From IMG/VR virus record IMGVR_UViG_2531839588_000017, positions 1-6,575 of that record: a stretch of 6,575 nucleotides of DNA; one strand, 5' to 3'. Shown here in pieces: positions 100-5,793 of the stretch. The translations under genes were made by a program, and so were the position numbers. The notes below the pieces were generated by a model. That model worked only from the letters and a program-made list of their open reading frames with translations, did no database searches and was not told the origin of the DNA. Numbering within the stretch: the stretch's first letter is position 1; the number at the start of each line of letters is the position of its first letter. The stretch comes from a virus. Taxonomy: Duplodnaviria > Heunggongvirae > Uroviricota > Caudoviricetes.

Positions 100-104
100 G
101 TAGG

Positions 105-419
105 TTATTCTGGGAAAAACTCCTGAATGTTCCTTTTTAACTGGCTCTTACTGTGACTGTTTTCTGTTGCAGATGTGCCAGTATGCTTGTTTCGGATGTT
201 ATTTCTTGGTGGTATTGCTTCCTCTTCCTGCCATTCAGCCAGCCAGTAAGCAAAGGCGGGATCGCTTTTAATAAGCGCCAGTCCAGCCAGAAATGCCGCG
301 CGTTGCGCGCGGCTGCGTTCGGAGGCTGGCAGGCTGTCGAGATAATTACACGCTTCTCGTTCACTCTTGACGGCTGCTGGCTTCAGATAGAAACTTATCC
401 GTCTGGTTGGAGTCGTCAT
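105..419 (-). CDS. parR: ParR/StbB-like partition adaptor (centromere-binding protein), 104 aa
   Basis: Sub-ORF of the 105..554 track ORF, starting at the ATG at 417-419. An AAGGAG Shine-Dalgarno sits 7 nt upstream and the start is 4 nt after the parM stop. Translation MTTPTRRISFYLKP...LDSLPASERSRAQRAAFLAGLAL resembles the N-terminal DNA-binding region of plasmid R1 ParR as I recall it (LDSIPQGERSRLNRAALTAGLAL). The upstream part of the 149-aa track ORF overlaps parM and is not used. Confidence 0.75.
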   Translation of the reverse strand: MTTPTRRISFYLKPAAVKSEREACNYLDSLPASERSRAQRAAFLAGLALIKSDPAFAYWLAEWQEEEAIPPRNNIRNKHTGTSATENSHSKSQLKRNIQEFFPE

Positions 420-423
420 TGGT

Positions 424-1382
424 TTACTCCTTGTCCATTGCGTACAGCCCATTAACCAGAGCAAACTGTGGCACCCCGTCCGCGATGAAAGTCGCATTAA
501 CTCCGCAGGCTTCGCGGATAGCGGGTGCCACAATCTCCGCCCCGCCACCGACAACCATCACCCGCCCGTAACCCGAAAACCCCGCCAGCGCGCGGATCAC
601 TCGTTGTTTCAGTGTTTCTTCCTTTTCACGAATAACCGCCATCAGGCTGGCGTAATGCGCGTCATTGTGGATGTGCTGGCGCAACCAGGCTTCATCATGG
701 CGATGTTCGATAATGGTATTGGCGATGTGGTGACTGGTGCGCATACCGTTAGTGGCCATCACCGACAGTACGGCATCGGCCATCAGGGAAACGCCTACGT
801 GTGGATCGCAAAACACCTGGCTGATACCTGCCAGTTGTCCCTGAACCTTTGCCACATCCAGCGTGGTTCCGCCTAAATCCACAATCAGCAGGGATTCAAA
901 CGGACTCATGTCAGCCAGTGCTTTAAAACCAGCCGGAATGGATTCAGGCATAACCCGTACGTTACGGATAGTGAATGCTTTTCCGTTCTGGTACGCCACC
1001 GGGCGCATGACGTTGCTTTTTTGCGGTTGATGTTGGCCATGTCCGGCTGTGCGTTTGTGTCGAAATACTCGCTCAGTGGCAGGGTGACAACCACATCCAC
1101 TTCCTGTGGTGTGATGCCTGATTTGACCAGCGCGTGATGAATGGCAATTACATTCACATCGCTGTACTGGTATTGCGTGTCGGTCGTCTGGACAAAGCGA
1201 TCGCTGACCGGATCAAAACCATAGCGCACGCCATCAAGCATGTAGTTCGCGGGCTGCGTGCCACCGAACGGCGCAGACCATTCCGACTTGAAGCTGTTCG
1301 GGCTGATGGCGTTGCGGCGTTCGCCGTTCTCAGTCCATGCCAGCTTGATGTTGGTGGAGCCGTCGTCGATACAAATTTTCAT
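424..1382 (-). pseudogene. parM: ParM/StbA-like actin-type segregation ATPase interrupted by one frameshift (fragments 906..1382 and 424..1008)
   Basis: N-terminal fragment MKICIDDGSTNIKL... carries the phosphate-1 motif DDGST; C-terminal fragment carries phosphate-2 IVDLGGTTLDV and the adenosine motif VVGGGAEIV. Both fragments match R1 ParM from recall. The frame changes right after ...NINRKK at the plus-strand T6 run 1017-1022; one extra base there restores a single ORF of about 319 aa. AAGGA Shine-Dalgarno 9 nt upstream of the ATG at 1382. Confidence 0.75.
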
Positions 1383-1406
1383 GTCGCTTTTCCTTATGTT
1401 GATTAA

Positions 1407-2003
1407 TTAATCGGTTACAGGATTTTTAAATCCCGCTTTTGCCTGTTTTGTGCGCGCTTCATATATCGCGGCGCGTTTTTGCTCATTTACGGGATTTGTG
1501 AGTCCCGTTTCTGTCTGTTTTTTGTTTCCACTGGTCAGGCCACCCCGCAGCAGGTCTGCTTTGCGGTGGGCGCGTTCAGTGGTTTCACTGATTCTCTGTG
1601 CGTGCTCTGCGTCACGGATGGCGCGCAGCATGTCAGAAAGCACGGTAACGGGGGTTTTCATGGTGTTCTGGTCCTGCTGAAGTGTGGATGCCAGACGTGC
1701 GGCGGCTTCGGGGTCTGATGCCCCCAGTTGTTCCAGATAGCTGGCGACCGGGTTATGGCGGATCTCTGTGCTGCTTACGCCGTGATTACGGCTCAGGCGC
1801 TGCCAGAGCTGCGTGATTCGGCTGTCCGGGCGGGTATCCGGTTTGCGTACAATTTCAAATCCCTGCGGTGCAATGATGCTGCCGTCAACGTACAGGCTGC
1901 CGCCCCGTAACAGGTGCTGCATCTGCTGTTCACCGATATGCAGGCCGAGAGATTCAGCAGACTCCCGCCATTCTTTAGCGAGTAATTCGTGGTTATCAGG
2001 CAA
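1407..2003 (-). CDS. Hypothetical protein (198-aa ORF); may be the displaced C-terminus of the gpA-like gene and/or contain a separate small gene
   Basis: Open frame ending 24 nt upstream of parM. The track start is a TTG and the same frame has stops immediately upstream (2004-2144), so the true start is unclear. An internal ATG at 1659-1661 (MKTPVTVLSDMLRAIRDAEH...) could start an 84-aa product. The 3' end overlaps dyad repeats that may be parMR control sites. Confidence 0.4.
   Translation of the reverse strand: MPDNHELLAKEWRESAESLGLHIGEQQMQHLLRGGSLYVDGSIIAPQGFEIVRKPDTRPDSRITQLWQRLSRNHGVSSTEIRHNPVASYLEQLGASDPEAAARLASTLQQDQNTMKTPVTVLSDMLRAIRDAEHAQRISETTERAHRKADLLRGGLTSGNKKQTETGLTNPVNEQKRAAIYEARTKQAKAGFKNPVTD
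1420..1507 (-). promoter_or_regulatory. Candidate parMR promoter/operator or centromere-like sites (two dyad-symmetric 16-bp motifs)
   Basis: GGATTT-N5-TCCCG occurs twice (1420-1435 and 1492-1507), each internally dyad-symmetric (GGATTT/AAATCC; CGGGA/TCCCG), 40-125 bp upstream of the parM start. There is no conventional intergenic region upstream of parM to hold a parC-type site. Confidence 0.25.
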
Positions 2004-2533
2004 AGGCCGCTGCTGTTTGCGGCTCTGTGTCCAGTCTGCATTTCATCACTGCTGTTTTTTGCCTGTTTGTCACGAGCGAACGCATCAGCGCCCGGCGTTC
2101 GTGCCGTTTCAGTGAGCGCACCATTCGTTCACTCAACGCCGTCAGGAGCTGCGGCCACGGTGCTGGCCGTTCTTCCGGCTGTTCTGTCCCGTTGTTGTCG
2201 TTTCCTGTACACGGGGACAGTTATTGCCACGAGTCCAAGGGGCGGCAGGGCCGCCCTGAAGGTCAAAACCATTTTCGCGGGCGCTGTCTTCCGCTTCCGG
2301 TTTACGTCTTACCAGCTTCCAGTTATCCGGATGCGTGCACACCGGGAGATCCCCGATGAGGGCGACCAGATCCCGTAAATCTGTACGCTCTGTTCGCCGT
2401 AATCGTTCAGCCATCGCGAGGTCGTAGGCGGTGCGAATCAGGTAGTCTTGCGGGAACAAGTACGCCCCCTGTTTTCATGTAGGGGCAAAACACCGGCATC
2501 AGCGGCAGCGAGTACCGCATCCATTGCGTCTCT
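2001..2533 (-). pseudogene. C-terminal remnant of the gpA-like replication initiator, split over at least two frames
   Basis: Protein-like translation continues from the core ORF in another frame (2460-2535: ...WMRYSLPLMPVFCPYMKTGGVLVP), then in a third frame (2459 down to about 2240: QDYLIRTAYDLAMAERLRRTERTDLRDLVALIGDLPVCTHPDNWKLVRRKPEAEDSARENGFDL). In-frame stops at 2142-2144 and below interrupt that frame, while a different frame is open from 2238 to 2001. Confidence 0.35.
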
Positions 2534-3469
2534 TCAGCGTTGCGGGCCTTCCGGGTTGCGTGCCATCTGGCTGGCAAGGCGGCGCAGTTCACGCCACACC
2601 TGACGGGAGGGGATGCCAAAGAACTGGAACTGGCGGACCCGGTGAAGGCGCGCCCAGCCGATGGCGCGCTCCACGCTCTCGGCCATTGATTTTCCGGTTT
2701 CGTGGTCAACGCGTGGTTTGCCCGTTTTCGGGTCGATTCCATCCACGGCGCGGCTGTCCAGGTTTTTTCCGATGTAGGTGGCGATGTAGCTGGTTGGCGT
2801 GCCTTTGGAGCCGTCGACGTACTCCACCTTAAAGCGCGGAGTAATATCATTGCCCAGCTCGTGGCGGTCTTCCTGAATGGCAATATCGCGGGTGATGGCC
2901 ACGATGCTGTCGATTTCTTCCGGATGAGCAAAGACCATCATATGCCAGTGCACGGTGCCGTCATGGTGAGGCTCCACCGTGCGGATGCCATACCAGCGCA
3001 GGCCGTCGCGGTTCAGTTTTTTGCGGACCGCCGCAAAAAACGTGTTAACCAGGTAATCGCTGGAGTCGCGCATGGTGGCCCCGTTCCATTTGGGATTCGG
3101 ATGACCGTTCTCTGTTGTGGCGTGGTATTTTGACGGGCAGGTGACAGTCAGAAACACCGCTTTGTCGCCACGGGCTTCGGCCAGAAGTTCCAGTCCCTTC
3201 ATGGTGGCCATCATTTCTGCCTTACGGTGAACCGGGTTACTTACTCCCGCGTAATACACCGTCTCGAGATCAATCGTGAACCCGTCTTCATTTTCCAGCA
3301 TGAAACTTTTCAGGAAATCGCGTGTTTTCTCGCGCTGTGCGCGAAACTCGCTTAACGCGTCCTGGCTCAGATAGGGTGATGTTTTTCTGGAAACCAGACA
3401 GGCGGCGCGGAGTTGTTCTTCTCTCCACTCCAACGTAACAGCCACAGTTTGCGTTTCCACCATCCGCAC
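2534..3469 (-). CDS. Rolling-circle replication initiator, P2 gpA / phiX174 A family (HUH endonuclease core, 311-aa fragment)
   Basis: Contains ...TCPSKYH..., the HUH motif VEPHHDGTVHWHMMVF (about 2942-2950) and the paired catalytic tyrosines SYIATYIGKN (YxxxY, about 2774-2788), followed by ...QVWRELRRL. The track start is a GTG with an in-frame TGA directly upstream (3473-3475), so the ORF looks N-terminally truncated. Confidence 0.75.
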   Translation of the reverse strand: MRMVETQTVAVTLEWREEQLRAACLVSRKTSPYLSQDALSEFRAQREKTRDFLKSFMLENEDGFTIDLETVYYAGVSNPVHRKAEMMATMKGLELLAEARGDKAVFLTVTCPSKYHATTENGHPNPKWNGATMRDSSDYLVNTFFAAVRKKLNRDGLRWYGIRTVEPHHDGTVHWHMMVFAHPEEIDSIVAITRDIAIQEDRHELGNDITPRFKVEYVDGSKGTPTSYIATYIGKNLDSRAVDGIDPKTGKPRVDHETGKSMAESVERAIGWARLHRVRQFQFFGIPSRQVWRELRRLASQMARNPEGPQR

Positions 3470-3678
3470 AGGTCAGGCGAAGGATTGCGCCCGGCAGCAG
3501 TCCGTTCCGGTTCGCTCTTGTTCAGGCTCTAATGTGGGGCATGGTGCAGGGTAAGCATCGGCCAGCATCGTAGCCTTCACTTACATCCATGGTCAGTCGC
3601 CATCTGCCCAACCATCCAGAGTTCAAGGTGCTGCTGAACATGCCGCGTCATGGTGGCCAGCGTCTGTATCTGGTGTTG

Positions 3679-4215
3679 TTAGCTGCGGCAGGTAAAGCAA
3701 ATCGTCCAGGCGTTCGCGCCGGCAAGGGAGCGATAACCCGGTGTCAGCCAGGCGTCGTGCGTCCAGACGTTCGAATATTTTGCGCAGGGTTCCGGGCTAG
3801 CGTTCGCCTGCCAGCTCTTTTTGCCTTTCCGGCGATCGCTTCCTGTTTTTTGCGCAGGAAAGAGAGGTGGCGAATAAGCGGATCGCGCAGATAGGACAGG
3901 CAGTGCCTTTAGTGTGGCAAAGGCACGGGCTACTGGGTCTTGTTCTGTTGCCCGGCGCTTACTGATGATGCTCTGTGCCAGCTTTTCACGCTGTCCGGCT
4001 TCCTCAAGGGATGCCATGAGTTTTTTACCCATGGCGGATTGTGCGAAAAAGGCTTCTTCCTTCGCTTCCTGTTCTTCCTGTGCCCTTTTGTCTGCCTCAA
4101 GGTAGTAACGGATGGCGCGTTGCAGGTCGGTTTCAGTTTCCTGCCTGCGCTCCGTAAACCTGGCCGGATCAATGGCTGGCCGTGGTTCATTCCAGCTCCA
4201 TGCAAACTCGCTCAT
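3679..4215 (-). CDS. Probable N-terminal fragment of the gpA-like replication gene (hypothetical protein if independent)
   Basis: Sub-ORF of the 3679..4242 track ORF, starting at the ATG at 4213-4215, which overlaps the TGA stop of the upstream 129-aa ORF (ATGA). The first 100 or so residues are protein-like (MSEFAWSWNEPRPAIDPARFTERRQETETDLQRAIRYYLEADKRAQEEQEAKEEAFFAQS...); the distal part is low-complexity, suggesting frame loss before the stop at 3679. Assignment to gpA is by position and inference only. Confidence 0.4.
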   Translation of the reverse strand: MSEFAWSWNEPRPAIDPARFTERRQETETDLQRAIRYYLEADKRAQEEQEAKEEAFFAQSAMGKKLMASLEEAGQREKLAQSIISKRRATEQDPVARAFATLKALPVLSARSAYSPPLFPAQKTGSDRRKGKKSWQANASPEPCAKYSNVWTHDAWLTPGYRSLAGANAWTICFTCRS

Positions 4216-4601
4216 GGCTGGTATCCCGTCACGCGCTGCCACTCCTGCGAGAAGATGGCGGAAAGGCGGTTAAATTCAGCGGTGTATTCACTCAGCGAGG
4301 CACACCCGCCAGCAGTGCGATGCGCCAGCATTGCCGCGAATACGGAGGCCGGGGAGTCGTAATACGCCAGCAGTGATTCGCCGTGTGGTGTCAGGCAGTG
4401 CAACGCCAGCCCGTGTGGTGTGAAGTCCACGCGGTAGCAGTCGTCTACTGTGAAATAAAGGGTGTCCGCATTCTCCGGTTTTGTGGTGCGTGCTCTGTTG
4501 TCACGACCACGGATGTAGAGATCAAATAATCCCTGAAGAATGGGAGCCAGACGGGTGTCCTGTGTGCGCACCCATCTTGTGAAGTCATGAGCGTCAATCA
4601 T
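4212..4601 (-). CDS. Hypothetical protein, 129 aa
   Basis: ATG at 4599-4601 with a weak AAAGAG Shine-Dalgarno about 10 nt upstream; stop overlaps the next ORF's ATG (ATGA at 4212-4215). Protein-like composition (MIDAHDFTRWVRTQDTRLAPILQGLFDLYIRGRDN...). No family recognised. Confidence 0.55.
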   Translation of the reverse strand: MIDAHDFTRWVRTQDTRLAPILQGLFDLYIRGRDNRARTTKPENADTLYFTVDDCYRVDFTPHGLALHCLTPHGESLLAYYDSPASVFAAMLAHRTAGGCASLSEYTAEFNRLSAIFSQEWQRVTGYQP

Positions 4602-4673
4602 GCTGCAATTCTCTTTACTACAGATGTGCGAAGGCCTCCCGCCGCAAGGTGCAGGAAAGGCCTGGAACAGGAA

Positions 4674-4904
4674 TTAATGGAGTTTGTTTTGCTGCTGAAA
4701 GAGCTGCTGAAGCTCGCGCAGATCATCCGCCAGATAGCTGAAAACAGCGGATGAATAGAGGTTTGAAAGTTCGCAGCTACGCTCATGCAGCATATTGATG
4801 TGCATGATTTTAGCGACGCGGAATGCGCGGGAAAGTCTGCGGTTGATTTCAGTCTGGATGTGACGACGCTCCGCGATAGCGCGGTGCTGTTTGCGGTTTG
4901 CCAT
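4674..4904 (-). CDS. Small basic protein, 76 aa; first ORF downstream of the antisense-RNA locus (positional analogue of P1 icd / P4 epsilon, identity not established)
   Basis: ATG at 4902-4904 preceded by AGAGG about 9 nt upstream and a 6-bp hairpin (4925-4930 / 4939-4944). Translation MANRKQHRAIAERRHIQTEINRRLSRAFRVAKIMHINMLHERSCELSNLYSSAVFSYLADDLRELQQLFQQQNKLH. Confidence 0.55.
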   Translation of the reverse strand: MANRKQHRAIAERRHIQTEINRRLSRAFRVAKIMHINMLHERSCELSNLYSSAVFSYLADDLRELQQLFQQQNKLH

Positions 4905-4950
4905 GGTGTTTGGCCTCTTCGTTTGTGAGTTTTTGGATACTCACCAACCA

Positions 4951-4968
4951 GAGTTGAGAATCTCGGGG
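4951..4968 (-). promoter_or_regulatory. Sense target site C for the antisense RNA (transcript 5'-CCCCGAGAUUCUCAAC-3')
   Basis: Plus-strand GAGTTGAGAATCTCGGGG. Shares GTTGAGAATC(C/T)CGG with the copy at 5127-5143 and is complementary to the B element at 4981-4993. Lies about 50 nt upstream of the 76-aa ORF start. Confidence 0.4.
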
Positions 4969-4976
4969 TGGCGAGA

Positions 4977-5038
4977 CGTACGGGGTTCTCAACACCGGCA
5001 AACGAAGAAACCGGCCCGACCGAAGTCGGCCCCGTACG
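4977..5038 (-). ncRNA. Candidate c4/CI-like antisense immunity RNA (structured core)
   Basis: Minus-strand transcript has a 9-bp closing stem (CGUACGGGG at 5038-5030 pairing with CCCCGUACG at 4985-4977) enclosing a CCGAC-UUCG-GUCGG tetraloop hairpin, a short CCGG/CCGG hairpin, and the element GUUGAGAA, which is complementary to the two flanking AUUCUCAAC sites. No protein-like ORF in the segment. Confidence 0.45.
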
Positions 5039-5086
5039 CCCCACCATAATTCGTGTGCGAAAAAGACGTGGCAATACAGTACGCAC

Positions 5087-5107
5087 AAAAAAACCGCTGG
5101 CGCGGTT
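5087..5107 (-). terminator. Intrinsic terminator between sense site A and the RNA core
   Basis: Minus-strand hairpin AACCGC-GCCA-GCGGTT (plus 5092-5107) followed by a U-run (plus A-run 5087-5093), about 120 nt downstream of the predicted end of the 99-aa gene. Confidence 0.45.
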
Positions 5108-5126
5108 GTGCGCTTCGTTTGTCAGC

Positions 5127-5143
5127 AGGTTGAGAATCCCGGC
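5127..5143 (-). promoter_or_regulatory. Sense target site A for the antisense RNA (transcript 5'-CCGGGAUUCUCAACC-3')
   Basis: Plus-strand AGGTTGAGAATCCCGG; 12 of 13 positions complementary to the B element, same orientation as site C. Confidence 0.4.
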
Positions 5144-5229
5144 ACCCGTTTTATGAGGTGCAGCAGAAATGTAACCTGACTGATTGCGGCATGGCAAGCG
5201 GTTTTTTTGTGTGTGCATGCTCTGATTTC

Positions 5230-5530
5230 TTACTGGTTCAGAAAAAAAATCAAAAACCTTGTCAATGCGTTGCAACAGCTCTTGCTGTATTGCTTCCGGC
5301 GTTTCCGGTTCGCCTGGCGCCTCCAATGTCGCGCAGAAATCAGCGATTTCATGATGGAGCGTCAGGCGAATGGCAGGAGCCGTGGTTCTGGCGTGCTCCA
5401 GCTCATCCAGCAATGCCAGCACCGCAGACGGCGAGAGCATTGCGCGAAATGCCAGTAATTTTTGAGGTGTTGCCATTCGTTGCAGGGCAAATGCCAGTTC
5501 GCGTAGCTTCTGGTGGTTGATGGTGCTCAT
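5230..5530 (-). CDS. Hypothetical protein, about 99 aa (the literal ORF runs on to 4598 with no stop)
   Basis: ATG at 5528-5530 overlaps the TGA of the upstream wHTH gene (ATGA). The first 96 residues are protein-like (MSTINHQKLRELAFALQRMATPQKLLAFRAMLSPSAVLALLDELEHARTT...QQELLQRIDKVFDFF). After the plus-strand A8 run at 5242-5249 the translation turns low-complexity (S/T/R-rich) and crosses the RNA locus and the 76-aa gene. One base fewer in the run gives ...DFFLNQ-stop at 5230-5232. The end coordinate is inferred. Confidence 0.45.
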
Positions 5531-5793
5531 GTTCTGGCTTCCTTCAGTAGCTGGTTAAACATGTGAGTAAGTGGATTGCTACACCCGAACGGCATCGGGT
5601 TTACGTGGTAAGAAGCCTGGCCTCCAGTTTTGCGAGCGCGACCACCTGTGCTGCGGTTTGTTCTGATGACTAAGCCGCCGCGCCAAAGTTGGCGTAACTC
5701 AGCATTAATGGCTGTGGTTGGAGTATTCAGTGCTGCTGCGATTTCTCCGCCGCTACAACCCGGATGGGTAGCGATGTAGTCCAGAATGGTCAT
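5527..5793 (-). CDS. Winged helix-turn-helix DNA-binding protein, 88 aa
   Basis: ATG at 5791-5793 overlaps the stop of the upstream 67-aa ORF (ATGA). LDYIATHPGCSGGEIAAALNTPTTAINAELRQLWRGGLVIRT has the helix-turn-helix-wing pattern of MarR/ArsR-like wHTH proteins. Confidence 0.6.
   Translation of the reverse strand: MTILDYIATHPGCSGGEIAAALNTPTTAINAELRQLWRGGLVIRTNRSTGGRARKTGGQASYHVNPMPFGCSNPLTHMFNQLLKEART

Follow-up and report, generated by a model that had tools for sequence, protein, structure and literature searches.

The locus and its features

The window, i.e., the whole stretch of 6575 nt analysed here, comes from a P2-like prophage that is complete, its genes including those for capsid, portal, terminase, gpA, cox and integrase. 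Its minus strand carries a compact cassette composed of a promoter-like site, an IsrK-like leader RNA, a small structured RNA and a gene for a 76-aa protein (Table 1), followed by a gene whose 129-aa product has no known function, and then by gpA. This cassette is placed within the early operon, upstream of the replication gene A; P2 and 186 themselves are without the RNA.

Table 1. Features of the RNA cassette and its surroundings in the window
Feature	Position	Strand	Remarks
Promoter-like site for the leader	5168..5197	-	TTGCCA, 18-nt spacer, TACATT; consensus scan only
IsrK-like leader RNA	5087..5161	-	Rfam isrK RF01394, 62.0 bits vs 50, E = 7.5e-12
Upstream joiner site	5129..5136	-	UUCUCAAC; in the second hairpin of the leader; co-varies with the joiner across loci
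Upstream loop site	5113..5121	-	CAAACGAAG; in the IsrK-like leader; co-varies with the loop element across loci
c4/CI-family antisense RNA gene	4964..5051	-	Rfam C4 RF01695, fold z = -4.67
Predicted mature RNA	5045-4967	-	~79 nt, GGU... to ...CCACC
Closing helix P1, 5' strand	5030..5046	-	Partner 4985-4969; 17 bp
Hairpin P2	5016..5029	-	CCGAC-UUCG-GUCGG; 5 bp; UUCG tetraloop 5024-5021
Hairpin P3	4994..5015	-	GCCGG (5015-5011) / CCGGU (4998-4994); 5 bp, 12-nt loop
Recognition element 1, P3 loop	4999..5008	-	UCUUCGUUUG; perfect complements 4925-4916 (10 nt), 5121-5113 (9 nt)
Recognition element 2, unpaired joiner between P3 and P1	4986..4993	-	GUUGAGAA; 8-nt complements 4960-4953, 5136-5129
Closing helix P1, 3' strand	4969..4985	-	Followed by tail CCCCG (4968-4964)
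Downstream joiner site	4953..4960	-	UUCUCAAC; starts 8 nt past the end of P1
Downstream loop site	4916..4925	-	CAAACGAAGA; overlaps Shine-Dalgarno AAGAGG (4919-4914), 9 nt before ATG 4904
Presumed regulated gene, 76-aa 'derepression protein', P4 epsilon homologue	4674..4904	-	Pfam PF25738

A three-helix RNA of the C4 family

The minus-strand stretch 5051-4964 matches the Rfam C4 family (RF01695) with 79.2 bits against a threshold of 45 (E = 7.7e-15), and the match takes in the whole model, positions 1-87 of 87. An initial annotation, made from the letters only, had proposed a compact core closed by a 9-bp stem. The pairing is indeed perfect between CGUACGGGG (5038-5030) and CCCCGUACG (4985-4977), but it constitutes the inner part of a helix of 17 bp, and the element therefore extends over about 5051-4964. 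The two inner hairpins were also correctly recognized, the one with the UUCG loop exactly as P2 and the CCGG/CCGG one as the GCCGG/CCGGU helix of P3, and the so-called B element, GUUGAGAA, is unpaired and adjoins the 3' side of the closing stem. The minimum free energy fold of the 62-nt core is exactly this structure (-31.6 kcal/mol, z = -3.45, with none of 200 shuffles equally good), while the 88-nt version adopts the structure of the C4 family at -48.6 kcal/mol (z = -4.67). An 88-nt copy identical to that of the window is present in E. coli UMNF18. ARAGORN reported no tRNA-like gene, and a tRNA or tmRNA identity was rejected.

In a covariance-model alignment of 37 distinct homologues, standard pairs make up 97.6% of the pair cells and 20 of the 27 pairs present compensatory changes, values that are reached by none of 500 shuffles (slid controls, 34-49%). 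The covariation check proposed for closing stem and UUCG hairpin thus gives a strongly positive outcome. Helix P1 has changed on both sides in 15 of its 17 pairs, with 96.5% of cells paired; in P2, four of five pairs are compensatory and all cells are paired, the tetraloop itself being variable (GAAA in Gifsy-1, CUCC in P4). The P3 helix is nearly invariant and for that reason gives no covariation information, its single compensatory pair being a change from C-G to U-A in 2 sequences. The filter used to collect homologues demanded exact P2 pairing, which is a bias for that helix; the c4-like sequences failing it differ by G-U pairs only, and the covariance-model alignment, where P2 pairing is 100%, takes in those sequences together with the reference phages. 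A separate MAFFT alignment gave 95.7% paired cells; the MAFFT version including the reference phages, with misplaced P1-like and Gifsy-1 rows, was replaced by the covariance-model alignment. A scan of viral contigs with the pattern CTTCGGNNNNGCCGGTTTC was unspecific, a c4-like RNA being found in only 36 of 119 matching stretches, and the remainder consisted mostly of unrelated sequence whose fold is not that of c4.

The structured RNA is real, and there is nothing unusual about it as a representative of the c4/CI family, a long-known group of antisense RNAs in phage immunity. As such the finding is already known: the family has been described for P1/P7, P4 and N15, and has been in Rfam since 2010. 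The kinship first suggested, with compact, stem-closed RNAs of the c4/CI kind that expose an antisense element, is borne out by the C4 match and by P4 CI belonging to the same family.

Recognition elements and their sites

Both exposed elements of the fold, the P3 loop and the joiner, have perfect complements on either side of the RNA. Each of the sequences TTCTCAAC and CAAACGAAG occurs exactly three times in the 6575-nt window, always at module positions, with 0.24 and 0.13 copies, respectively, expected by chance. The initial annotation had noticed a downstream complement of the joiner, its C site. This 8-nt complement exists, starting 16 nt past the 9-bp stem; the spacing of 12 nt that was given for it is correct only when counted from GAGA at 4964. 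The loop element and both upstream sites were absent from that description.

Across 31 loci, with 16 joiner variants and 18 loop variants, complementarity between the elements and the sites of the same locus averages 6.8 nt (joiner) and 8.5 nt (loop), as compared with 3.6 and 3.9 nt for non-self combinations. In these 31 loci the position of the downstream joiner site is conserved, 6-12 nt past the RNA, and its sequence co-varies with the joiner. Furthermore, nearly all differences between the window and its near-identical relatives L015 and L002 fall at the recognition and target sites, where all three places have changed together. Among 80 near-identical prophage loci, 14 specificity combinations are found, 12 of them with a perfect three-way match. 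The fusion of a loop complement with a Shine-Dalgarno sequence is also present in P1-like, N15, Gifsy-1, Stx2 F039, P88-like and P4 sequences. At the level of sequence, joiner, loop and their sites co-vary as is expected of an antisense RNA plus its targets.

The short duplexes have calculated energies of -8.5, -11.7 and -9.8 kcal/mol. Co-folding predicted no intermolecular pairs, and duplex or co-folding runs with whole RNAs gave either none or a full unfolding, these nested methods being unable to represent the pairing of a loop or a multiloop strand to a target; among these calculations, only the energies of the short duplexes carry meaning.

Leader RNA and processing

The -10 element of the leader promoter-like site ends 7 nt ahead of the first base of the IsrK-like RNA, and the relatives L001, L002 and L015 show no difference in the stretch 5197-5168; it would presumably function as the promoter of the leader. 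An intrinsic terminator-like site (stem 5107-5092 plus a U run) sits between the upstream sites and the RNA. The Rfam model c4-a1b1 (RF03163) has no match in the window at E <= 1, though the complementary sites are present; elsewhere, it matches Gifsy-1 (48.1 bits), a P1-like phage (56.2 bits) and P4 (44.1 bits).

For the c4 RNA of P1/P7, an RNase P cut leaving a GGU start and a mature length of 77 +/- 1 nt are described (PMC5320573). In 26 of 27 distinct copies of the RNA, the 17-bp helix is combined with a U|GG start and is followed by (A/G)CC(C/A), resembling the RCCA tail of tRNAs. The mature ends predicted in Table 1 were deduced from these conserved end features together with the P1/P7 start and length (PMC5320573). 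Processing of the window RNA by RNase P is a reasonable expectation, given the conserved ends and the analogy with P1/P7.

A second promoter-like match exists at 5074-5046. This match was set aside as the origin of the RNA because its start would fall inside the closing helix and because the small RNA of Gifsy-1 needs the isrK promoter; if real, this promoter conflicts with the RNase P route. No data on expression, processing or regulation, whether of this locus or of a P88-like phage, turned up in the literature searched.

The downstream gene and the host prophage

The 76-aa protein scores 29.3 bits with the Pfam family PF25738, barely above the cut-off of 27 (P4 epsilon reaches 170 bits), and shares 29% identity with P4 epsilon in BLASTP (E = 1e-8). 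A tblastn search with it returned P88-like phages only and did not recover P4, the kinship with epsilon having required the Pfam profile and the pairwise comparison. The marginal PF25738 match was counted against the explanation favored below, as was a downstream gene set unlike that of P1 (no icd or ant).

In all 80 viral loci carrying the 76-aa gene, the RNA lies about 50 nt upstream of it, and most likely keeps this small anti-repressor-type gene silent. The 129-aa reading frame shows no similarity to P4 orf151 or orf106, and for the neighbouring proteins NCBIfam gave no matches and PHROGs only families of 'unknown function'.

At least 80% of the window is present in 851 genomes, and related DNA in about 31% of complete E. 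coli genomes. Compared with its closest complete relative, the window shows 75 single-base deletions plus 5 insertions, the majority within gene A; poor sequencing of this copy is one possible cause, the decay of its prophage another.

Related systems

The Rfam C4 model also matches P4 CI, N15, Gifsy-1 STnc1160/'orf45', P1-like c4 and the Stx2 phage F039, with a match to isrK or c4-a1b1 ahead of each.

In P4, the CI RNA (74.9 bits with Rfam C4) comes after isrK and c4-a1b1 matches. As in the window, it bears two recognition elements, each complemented on both sides of the RNA, and the loop complement is fused to a Shine-Dalgarno sequence; downstream lie epsilon, homologous to the 76-aa gene, and further on a replication gene. 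The two differ in that P4 has a short ORF between the RNA and epsilon, whereas in the window the epsilon-like gene comes first, and in the gap from leader terminator to RNA, about 100 nt in P4 and about 35 nt here. Moreover, P4 is a satellite with an alpha primase, while the host element of the window has the capsid, terminase and gpA genes of a complete P2-type phage. Cross-reaction with P4 itself is not to be expected, as the specificity sequences are different. The pairing of P4 seqB with seqA and seqC has been described as that of an antisense RNA on target sequences of the transcript (PMC4825925).

The P1-like phage RNA belongs to the same Rfam family (71.9 bits) and shares with the window the three-helix fold, the two exposed elements and the paired sites, upstream in c4-a1b1 and downstream at the ribosome binding site of the first gene. 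In P1/P7, c4 (immI operon, c4-icd-ant) controls an anti-repressor operon, as is presumed for the window. In contrast, the genes downstream are icd and ant instead of an epsilon-like gene, and the upstream region matches c4-a1b1 where that of the window matches isrK.

In Gifsy-1, a C4 match (69 bits) over 'orf45'/STnc1160 begins 25 nt after isrK (79.3 bits), and the RNA is likewise upstream of an anti-repressor-like gene. Unlike the window, Gifsy-1 is a lambdoid prophage, the regulated protein is AnrP and the P2 loop is GAAA. The 80-nt STnc1160 is processed from transcripts reading through the isrK terminator and is lost upon deletion of the isrK promoter; IsrK pairs with the STnc1160 region, activating translation, and experiments revealed two alternative folds (PMC4825925). 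The authors considered the region as a translated ORF of 45 codons coupled to anrP, and named P4 CI only as an analogy (PMC4825925).

N15 presents the same order, isrK (62.4 bits) and then C4 (78.8 bits), and its joiner element is identical to GUUGAGAA; the loop element is different, and so are the downstream genes, which include a Bro-N protein. The anti-immunity locus of this phage-plasmid is one where a small processed RNA controls an anti-repressor operon.

Proposed mechanism and competing explanations

With a probability of roughly 0.8, we interpret the locus as a c4/CI-type immunity antisense RNA gene of a P2-like (P88/Xuanwuvirus-type) E. coli prophage, whose proposed role is to repress the epsilon-like gene. 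The promoter-like site would drive a leader ending at the intrinsic terminator, and transcripts reading through would contain the three-helix RNA with its 17-bp stem. As in P1/P7, RNase P would cut between U5046 and G5045, leaving a stable RNA of about 79 nt, whose exposed loop and joiner match the two downstream sites. Pairing over the Shine-Dalgarno sequence would stop translation of the 76-aa derepression gene and, in a manner comparable to P1 and P4, would probably also provoke premature termination, with a reduced output of the genes further down, replication gene A among them. The anti-repressor would thereby stay off in the lysogen and on an incoming phage of the same specificity type. 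In turn, following what is known in Gifsy-1, the leader RNA and an excess of target transcripts could titrate the antisense RNA and relieve repression.

The same RNA and pairings could instead have premature transcription termination as their main output, in the manner of P4 and N15, and chiefly gate replication. Transcription would then halt ahead of the epsilon-like gene and gene A, owing to pairing of the RNA with the nascent leader, the downstream site or both. The layout is that of P4, with a leader bearing site A and a terminator-like hairpin, the CI RNA, site C, epsilon and a later replication gene; in the window, the upstream sites are separated from the RNA by an intrinsic terminator, and the cassette is inside the early operon before gene A. 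For P4, the CI RNA is described as causing termination through seqA and seqC pairing (PMC4825925). Nevertheless, the loop site overlaps the Shine-Dalgarno sequence in every system examined, and translation is therefore indicated as the primary point of attack. Furthermore, when IsrK was supplied in Gifsy-1, translation rose about 140-fold and the transcript level about 8-fold (PMC4825925). Termination as the main output is thus possible, if clearly short of probable, and the two effects are not mutually exclusive, termination in P1 and P4 being regarded as a consequence of RNA left untranslated.

It could also be argued that the RNA gene is intact but resides in a defective prophage, where it would confer at most immunity to phages or satellites of the same specificity and have no lysis-lysogeny role of its own. 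The indels would fit, as 46 of them fall in 3500-4000 and 19 in 2000-2500, gene A is fragmented and ParM split. However, the module is intact, with one indel only in 4300-5600, and the scattered single-base deletions would resemble sequencing error more than decay. The 851 genomes also count against a defective remnant, and the related phage P88 is inducible and plaque-forming (PMC5285337). On balance, we regard this possibility as unlikely.

The initial annotation had suggested a structural switch between B and C, which can be read as a cis-acting device in which the GUUGAGAA strand is either free in the compact fold or paired with the site 8-16 nt downstream, the refolding of the transcript setting expression without any RNA acting in trans. 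The 8-nt complement and the conserved distance of 6-12 nt between helix and site are compatible with it, the unprocessed read-through transcript has two near-isoenergetic predicted folds (-109.1 vs -108.5 kcal/mol), and two conformers were observed experimentally for the Gifsy-1 homologue (PMC4825925). Nevertheless, the predicted bistability engages upstream leader sites in the unprocessed transcript and not the C site, and in the fold of 5045-4890 the compact structure is retained with C unpaired. The joiner complement occurs twice, upstream as well as downstream, and the loop element has a pair of sites of its own, the arrangement expected of an antisense RNA plus its targets; all of them co-vary accordingly. 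Homologues are described as separate small processed RNAs (PMC5320573, PMC4825925), and pairing in cis with the 17-bp helix intact would require a linker of 8 nt to span the whole helix. A switch acting purely in cis thus appears quite improbable, and the suggestion was not upheld in the form given.

Finally, a protein-coding region with an incidental RNA fold, either the mechanical ORF of 310 aa running across the RNA (5530-4598) or the 'ash family protein' annotated over homologous DNA in some records, is rejected with next to no doubt, as that frame stays open only through a length difference in the T run 5249-5242, T8 in the window against T7 in relatives (where a 99-aa gene stops at ~5230), the weak Phage_ASH match (PF10554, residues 120-191 = 5173-4958) scores 18.8 bits, under the cut-off of 26, and substitutions keep base pairs rather than the reading frame. 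Phage_ASH itself looks like translated RNA genes, because its best-scoring P4 'cI gene product' ORF overlies the CI RNA match.

Significance

The RNA genes of this family are mostly unannotated in RefSeq, or hidden under spurious 'Ash family', 'Icd-like' or hypothetical calls, and the recognition of the locus as an antisense RNA has, in this sense, a value for annotation. This also concerns the Gifsy-1 'orf45' region, which corresponds to the same RNA family.

Beyond annotation, the context is of some interest, as P2-like phages are seen to harbour an RNA/epsilon cassette of the P4 type in many specificity types. The satellite P4 uses its own RNA-plus-epsilon cassette both for immunity and for derepressing the P2 helper. 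A joint reading could be envisaged, combining a switch for the phage's own induction and anti-immunity, RNA cross-immunity between helpers and satellites, and module exchange with P4; in the literature searched, such a combination is not described for P2-like phages, and we put it forward as a tentative, rather doubtful proposal. If true, the RNA-gated anti-repressor would act on the P2-type C repressor of the phage, cross-immunity would operate between helper-type phages and P4-like satellites sharing a specificity type, and the modules of P4 and of the P88/Xuanwuvirus-like phages would have been swapped between helper and satellite. In this context, the cassette would provide a testable route to phage induction and to a possible mutual interference of helpers and satellites by way of RNA.

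Structure and family of the RNA

The compact fold that the initial annotation had described on the minus strand is correct in its observation, since the stem, both hairpins and the unpaired strand (the B element, GUUGAGAA, adjoining the 3′ strand of the stem) are all present in the sequence. Indeed, the predicted minimum-free-energy structure of the noted 62-nt core is exactly the one proposed (-31.6 kcal/mol, z = -3.45), and none of 200 shuffles was equally stable. The annotated coordinates do not reach the ends of the element, because the 9-bp stem is the inner end of a closing helix (helix P1) that runs outward to 17 bp; the whole 88-nt element is predicted to fold at -48.6 kcal/mol (z = -4.67). 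The features of the module are collected in the table.

Homologues were obtained by a pattern scan of viral contigs, of which the c4-like ones were retained and reference phages added, and they were aligned in two ways. In the MAFFT alignment (26 sequences), 95.7% of pair cells hold standard pairs and both sides have changed in 13 of the 17 closing-helix pairs, while sliding the partner by 1-3 columns lowers pairing to 33-51%. The covariance-model alignment comprises 37 distinct sequences, among them P4, N15, Gifsy-1, a P1-like phage and an Stx2 phage; here 97.6% of cells are paired, sliding the partner gives 34-49%, and 0 of 500 shuffles match the observed values. Compensatory changes affect 20 of 27 pairs in total. 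The covariation by which the initial annotation had proposed to check the closing stem and the UUCG hairpin is present in both (15/17 and 4/5 pairs, respectively), helix P3 being nearly invariant and so uninformative. The first filter demanded exact pairing in the UUCG hairpin, and the c4-like sequences dropped in this way differ by G-U pairs only. The RNA structure is real.

Table. Features of the RNA module and its transcription signals
Feature	Position	Strand	Details
Promoter-like site	5197-5168	minus	ends 7 nt ahead of leader
isrK leader (RF01394)	5161-5087	minus	Rfam 62.0 bits (threshold 50), E = 7.5e-12
Intrinsic terminator of leader	5107-5092 plus U run	minus	terminator-like match
Second promoter-like match	5074-5046	minus	TTGCCA, 17-nt spacer, AATTAT; ends at 5′ edge of closing helix
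C4 antisense RNA (RF01695)	5051-4964	minus	Rfam 79.2 bits (threshold 45), E = 7.7e-15, full-length model
Helix P1	5046-5030 / 4985-4969	minus	17 bp; inner 9 bp CGUACGGGG (5038-5030) with CCCCGUACG (4985-4977)
Helix P2 (UUCG hairpin)	5029-5016	minus	CCGAC-UUCG-GUCGG
Helix P3	5015-5011 / 4998-4994	minus	GCCGG...CCGGU
Recognition element, P3 loop	5008-4999	minus	UCUUCGUUUG; complements: downstream 4925-4916 (10 nt), upstream 5121-5113 (9 nt)
Recognition element, joiner (B)	4993-4986	minus	GUUGAGAA; complements: downstream 4960-4953 (the C site), upstream 5136-5129

An Rfam scan of the window returned two minus-strand matches, C4 and isrK. The 'c4 antisense RNA' family and its companion 'c4-a1b1' motif were catalogued in 2010 (PMC2864571); the latter has no match in the window at E <= 1, whereas P4, Gifsy-1 and a P1-like phage each have one. 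No tRNA or tmRNA was detected by ARAGORN. The element is an ordinary c4/CI family RNA and, by analogy, most likely acts in the manner of P1 c4 and P4 CI.

Recognition elements and their targets

Two single-stranded recognition elements, named here by position as the P3 loop and the joiner, have complementary sites on both sides of the RNA. Each site motif occurs three times in the window, solely at module positions, against chance expectations of 0.24 (joiner) and 0.13 (loop). Both upstream sites sit within the IsrK-like leader, and the downstream complement of the loop overlaps the Shine-Dalgarno sequence AAGAGG (4919-4914) of the gene starting at ATG 4904. This geometry is common to P1-like, N15, Gifsy-1, Stx2 F039, P88-like and P4 sequences, each having specificity sequences of its own.

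Across 31 loci, carrying 16 joiner and 18 loop variants, the joiner is complementary to its own downstream site over 6.8 nt on average (at least 6 nt in 100% of loci) and to non-self sites over 3.6 nt; for the loop the means are 8.5 nt (at least 6 nt in 94% of loci) and 3.9 nt, and for either element about 6% of non-self pairs reach 6 nt. Furthermore, the differences between the window and two near-identical relatives (L015 and L002) are almost confined to these elements and sites, all three places having changed together. Read from the sequences, such matched changes are the signature of an antisense RNA with its targets, which argues against the pairing of B with C as a private structural switch, as the initial annotation had suggested.

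A conformational choice in the precursor, involving the upstream site rather than the C site, is nevertheless plausible in the folding models, because two nearly isoenergetic folds are predicted for the unprocessed read-through transcript (5161-4880), mirroring the two conformers shown by experiment in Gifsy-1 (PMC4825925). In the optimum (-109.1 kcal/mol), both recognition elements of the RNA are paired to the mid-leader and the closing helix is disrupted; with the c4 fold enforced, the energy is -108.5 kcal/mol. In the predicted fold of 5045-4890 the compact structure is retained and the C site is unpaired.

Among 80 P88-like viral-contig loci, in which the 76-aa protein encoded downstream is 87-100% identical, 14 loop/joiner combinations occur (11 loops, 5 joiners), 12 of them with perfect three-way complementarity; those of loci L162 and L205 show weaker perfect-match complementarity for the loop. 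The type found in the window is present in six of the 80, and loop and joiner have apparently been reshuffled independently of each other. One viral contig (L104) carries, within 1000-2300, three complete tandem modules of leader, terminator, RNA, target sites and short ORF, each with a different specificity pair (c4 copies at 1193-1288, 1576-1674 and 1963-2058). Another (L074) has two c4 copies (260-355 and 8627-8722), one of them with the joiner GUUGAGAA. Such multiple modules may provide a multi-specificity RNA immunity.

Proposed processing and mechanism

The RNA would be carried on transcripts reading through the leader terminator and released by RNase P, with a cut between U5046 and G5045. 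We infer this because P1/P7 c4 is reportedly cut by RNase P to an RNA of 77 +/- 1 nt with GGU at its 5′ end (PMC5320573), because 26 of 27 distinct copies share the 17-bp helix, a U|GG junction and an (A/G)CC(C/A) tail resembling the RCCA end of tRNA, and because the homologous 80-nt STnc1160 of Gifsy-1 needs the isrK promoter and arises through processing (PMC4825925). The second promoter-like match would place the transcription start inside the helix. An AATTAT/GATAAT box ahead of the GG is kept in many homologues and, judging from its sequence, could be either a -10 element or a leader preference of RNase P.

Once released, the RNA would pair with both downstream sites and mask the Shine-Dalgarno sequence, blocking translation of the epsilon-like gene. 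P4 CI RNA has been described as causing premature termination via seqA and seqC (PMC4825925), and by analogy transcription into the following 129-aa gene and gene A may be curtailed. The leader bears both target sites and therefore could act as a decoy for the RNA. In Gifsy-1, IsrK provided in trans pairs with 'orf45', and anrP translation increases about 140-fold (PMC4825925).

Prophage context and known systems

The window lies within a P88/Xuanwuvirus-type P2-like prophage (about 91% identity to P88-like phages across the module), which adjoins pheA/tyrA in the closest genome. Of 5426 complete E. coli genomes, 851 contain at least 80% of the window and 1672 contain related DNA, mostly unannotated, with up to six copies per genome. 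The early operon runs from cox through small genes, including a MarR-type gene, to a 99-aa gene, the leader and c4-type RNAs, the 76-aa 'derepression protein', the 129-aa protein and the replication endonuclease gpA. Against Pfam PF25738 the 76-aa protein scores near threshold (29.3 bits, cut-off 27), and it shares 29% identity with P4 epsilon (E = 1e-8); in 80/80 viral-contig loci encoding it, the c4-type RNA lies about 50 nt upstream of its gene (at 2501). P2 and 186 have no such RNA in their early regions, so the cassette characterizes this lineage rather than P2-like phages as a whole.

Comparison with the closest relative shows 75 single-base deletions and five insertions in the window, concentrated in gene A, with only one indel in 4300-5600; this load may point to sequencing of poor quality or to prophage decay. 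Within 1000-4000, chiefly at 2000-2500 and 3500-4000, the indels break gene A into several ORFs and split ParM in two. Beside gene A the prophage carries plasmid-type ParM together with partition/stability genes, and beyond them a ClpX-type zinc-finger gene (about 100-1400 (-); 5878-7153 in the relative L001); such a set is unusual in an integrated P2-like phage.

The gene neighbourhood is closest to that of P4, whose layout is the same: isrK and c4-a1b1 matches precede CI RNA (8507-8420; 74.9 bits with Rfam C4), and epsilon follows (170 bits on PF25738). In Gifsy-1 (NC_010392), a full-length C4 match (34131-34214 (-), 69 bits) lies 25 nt downstream of isrK. The IsrK study, which regarded this region both as a translated ORF ('orf45') and as STnc1160, found its nucleotides but not its amino acids conserved and cited the P4 CI analogy alone, never c4 or RNase P (PMC4825925).

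The Pfam family Phage_ASH (PF10554) seems to represent conceptually translated leader/c4-CI RNA loci. It scores 59.7 bits on the old P4 'cI gene product' ORF (8168-8584), 28 bits on N15 gp32 (2600-2890) and 18.8 bits on the read-through frame of the window (4958-5173 (-)), exactly over both RNA genes; 'ash family protein' is the RefSeq label on some copies. A 310-aa mechanical ORF (4598-5530 (-)) also spans the RNA genes, and is open solely because the T run at 5242-5249 is T8 in the window and T7 in relatives, where the 99-aa gene stops at a TAA near 5230.

The finding is already known in kind, because E. coli copies are widespread and the isrK/C4 pair is already annotated in at least one GenBank phage record; the literature searched holds no expression or genetic data on this locus or any P88-like phage. 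Unlike P1 c4 and P4 CI, this RNA is carried by a complete P2-type phage, and an epsilon-like gene comes first among the genes that it would regulate. The only, and modestly, new point is a P4-type cassette with many specificity types inside P2-like phages. P4 epsilon binds the P2 C repressor and inactivates it; if the 76-aa protein likewise inactivates the phage's own C-type repressor, the RNA would be a lock on the prophage's anti-repressor.
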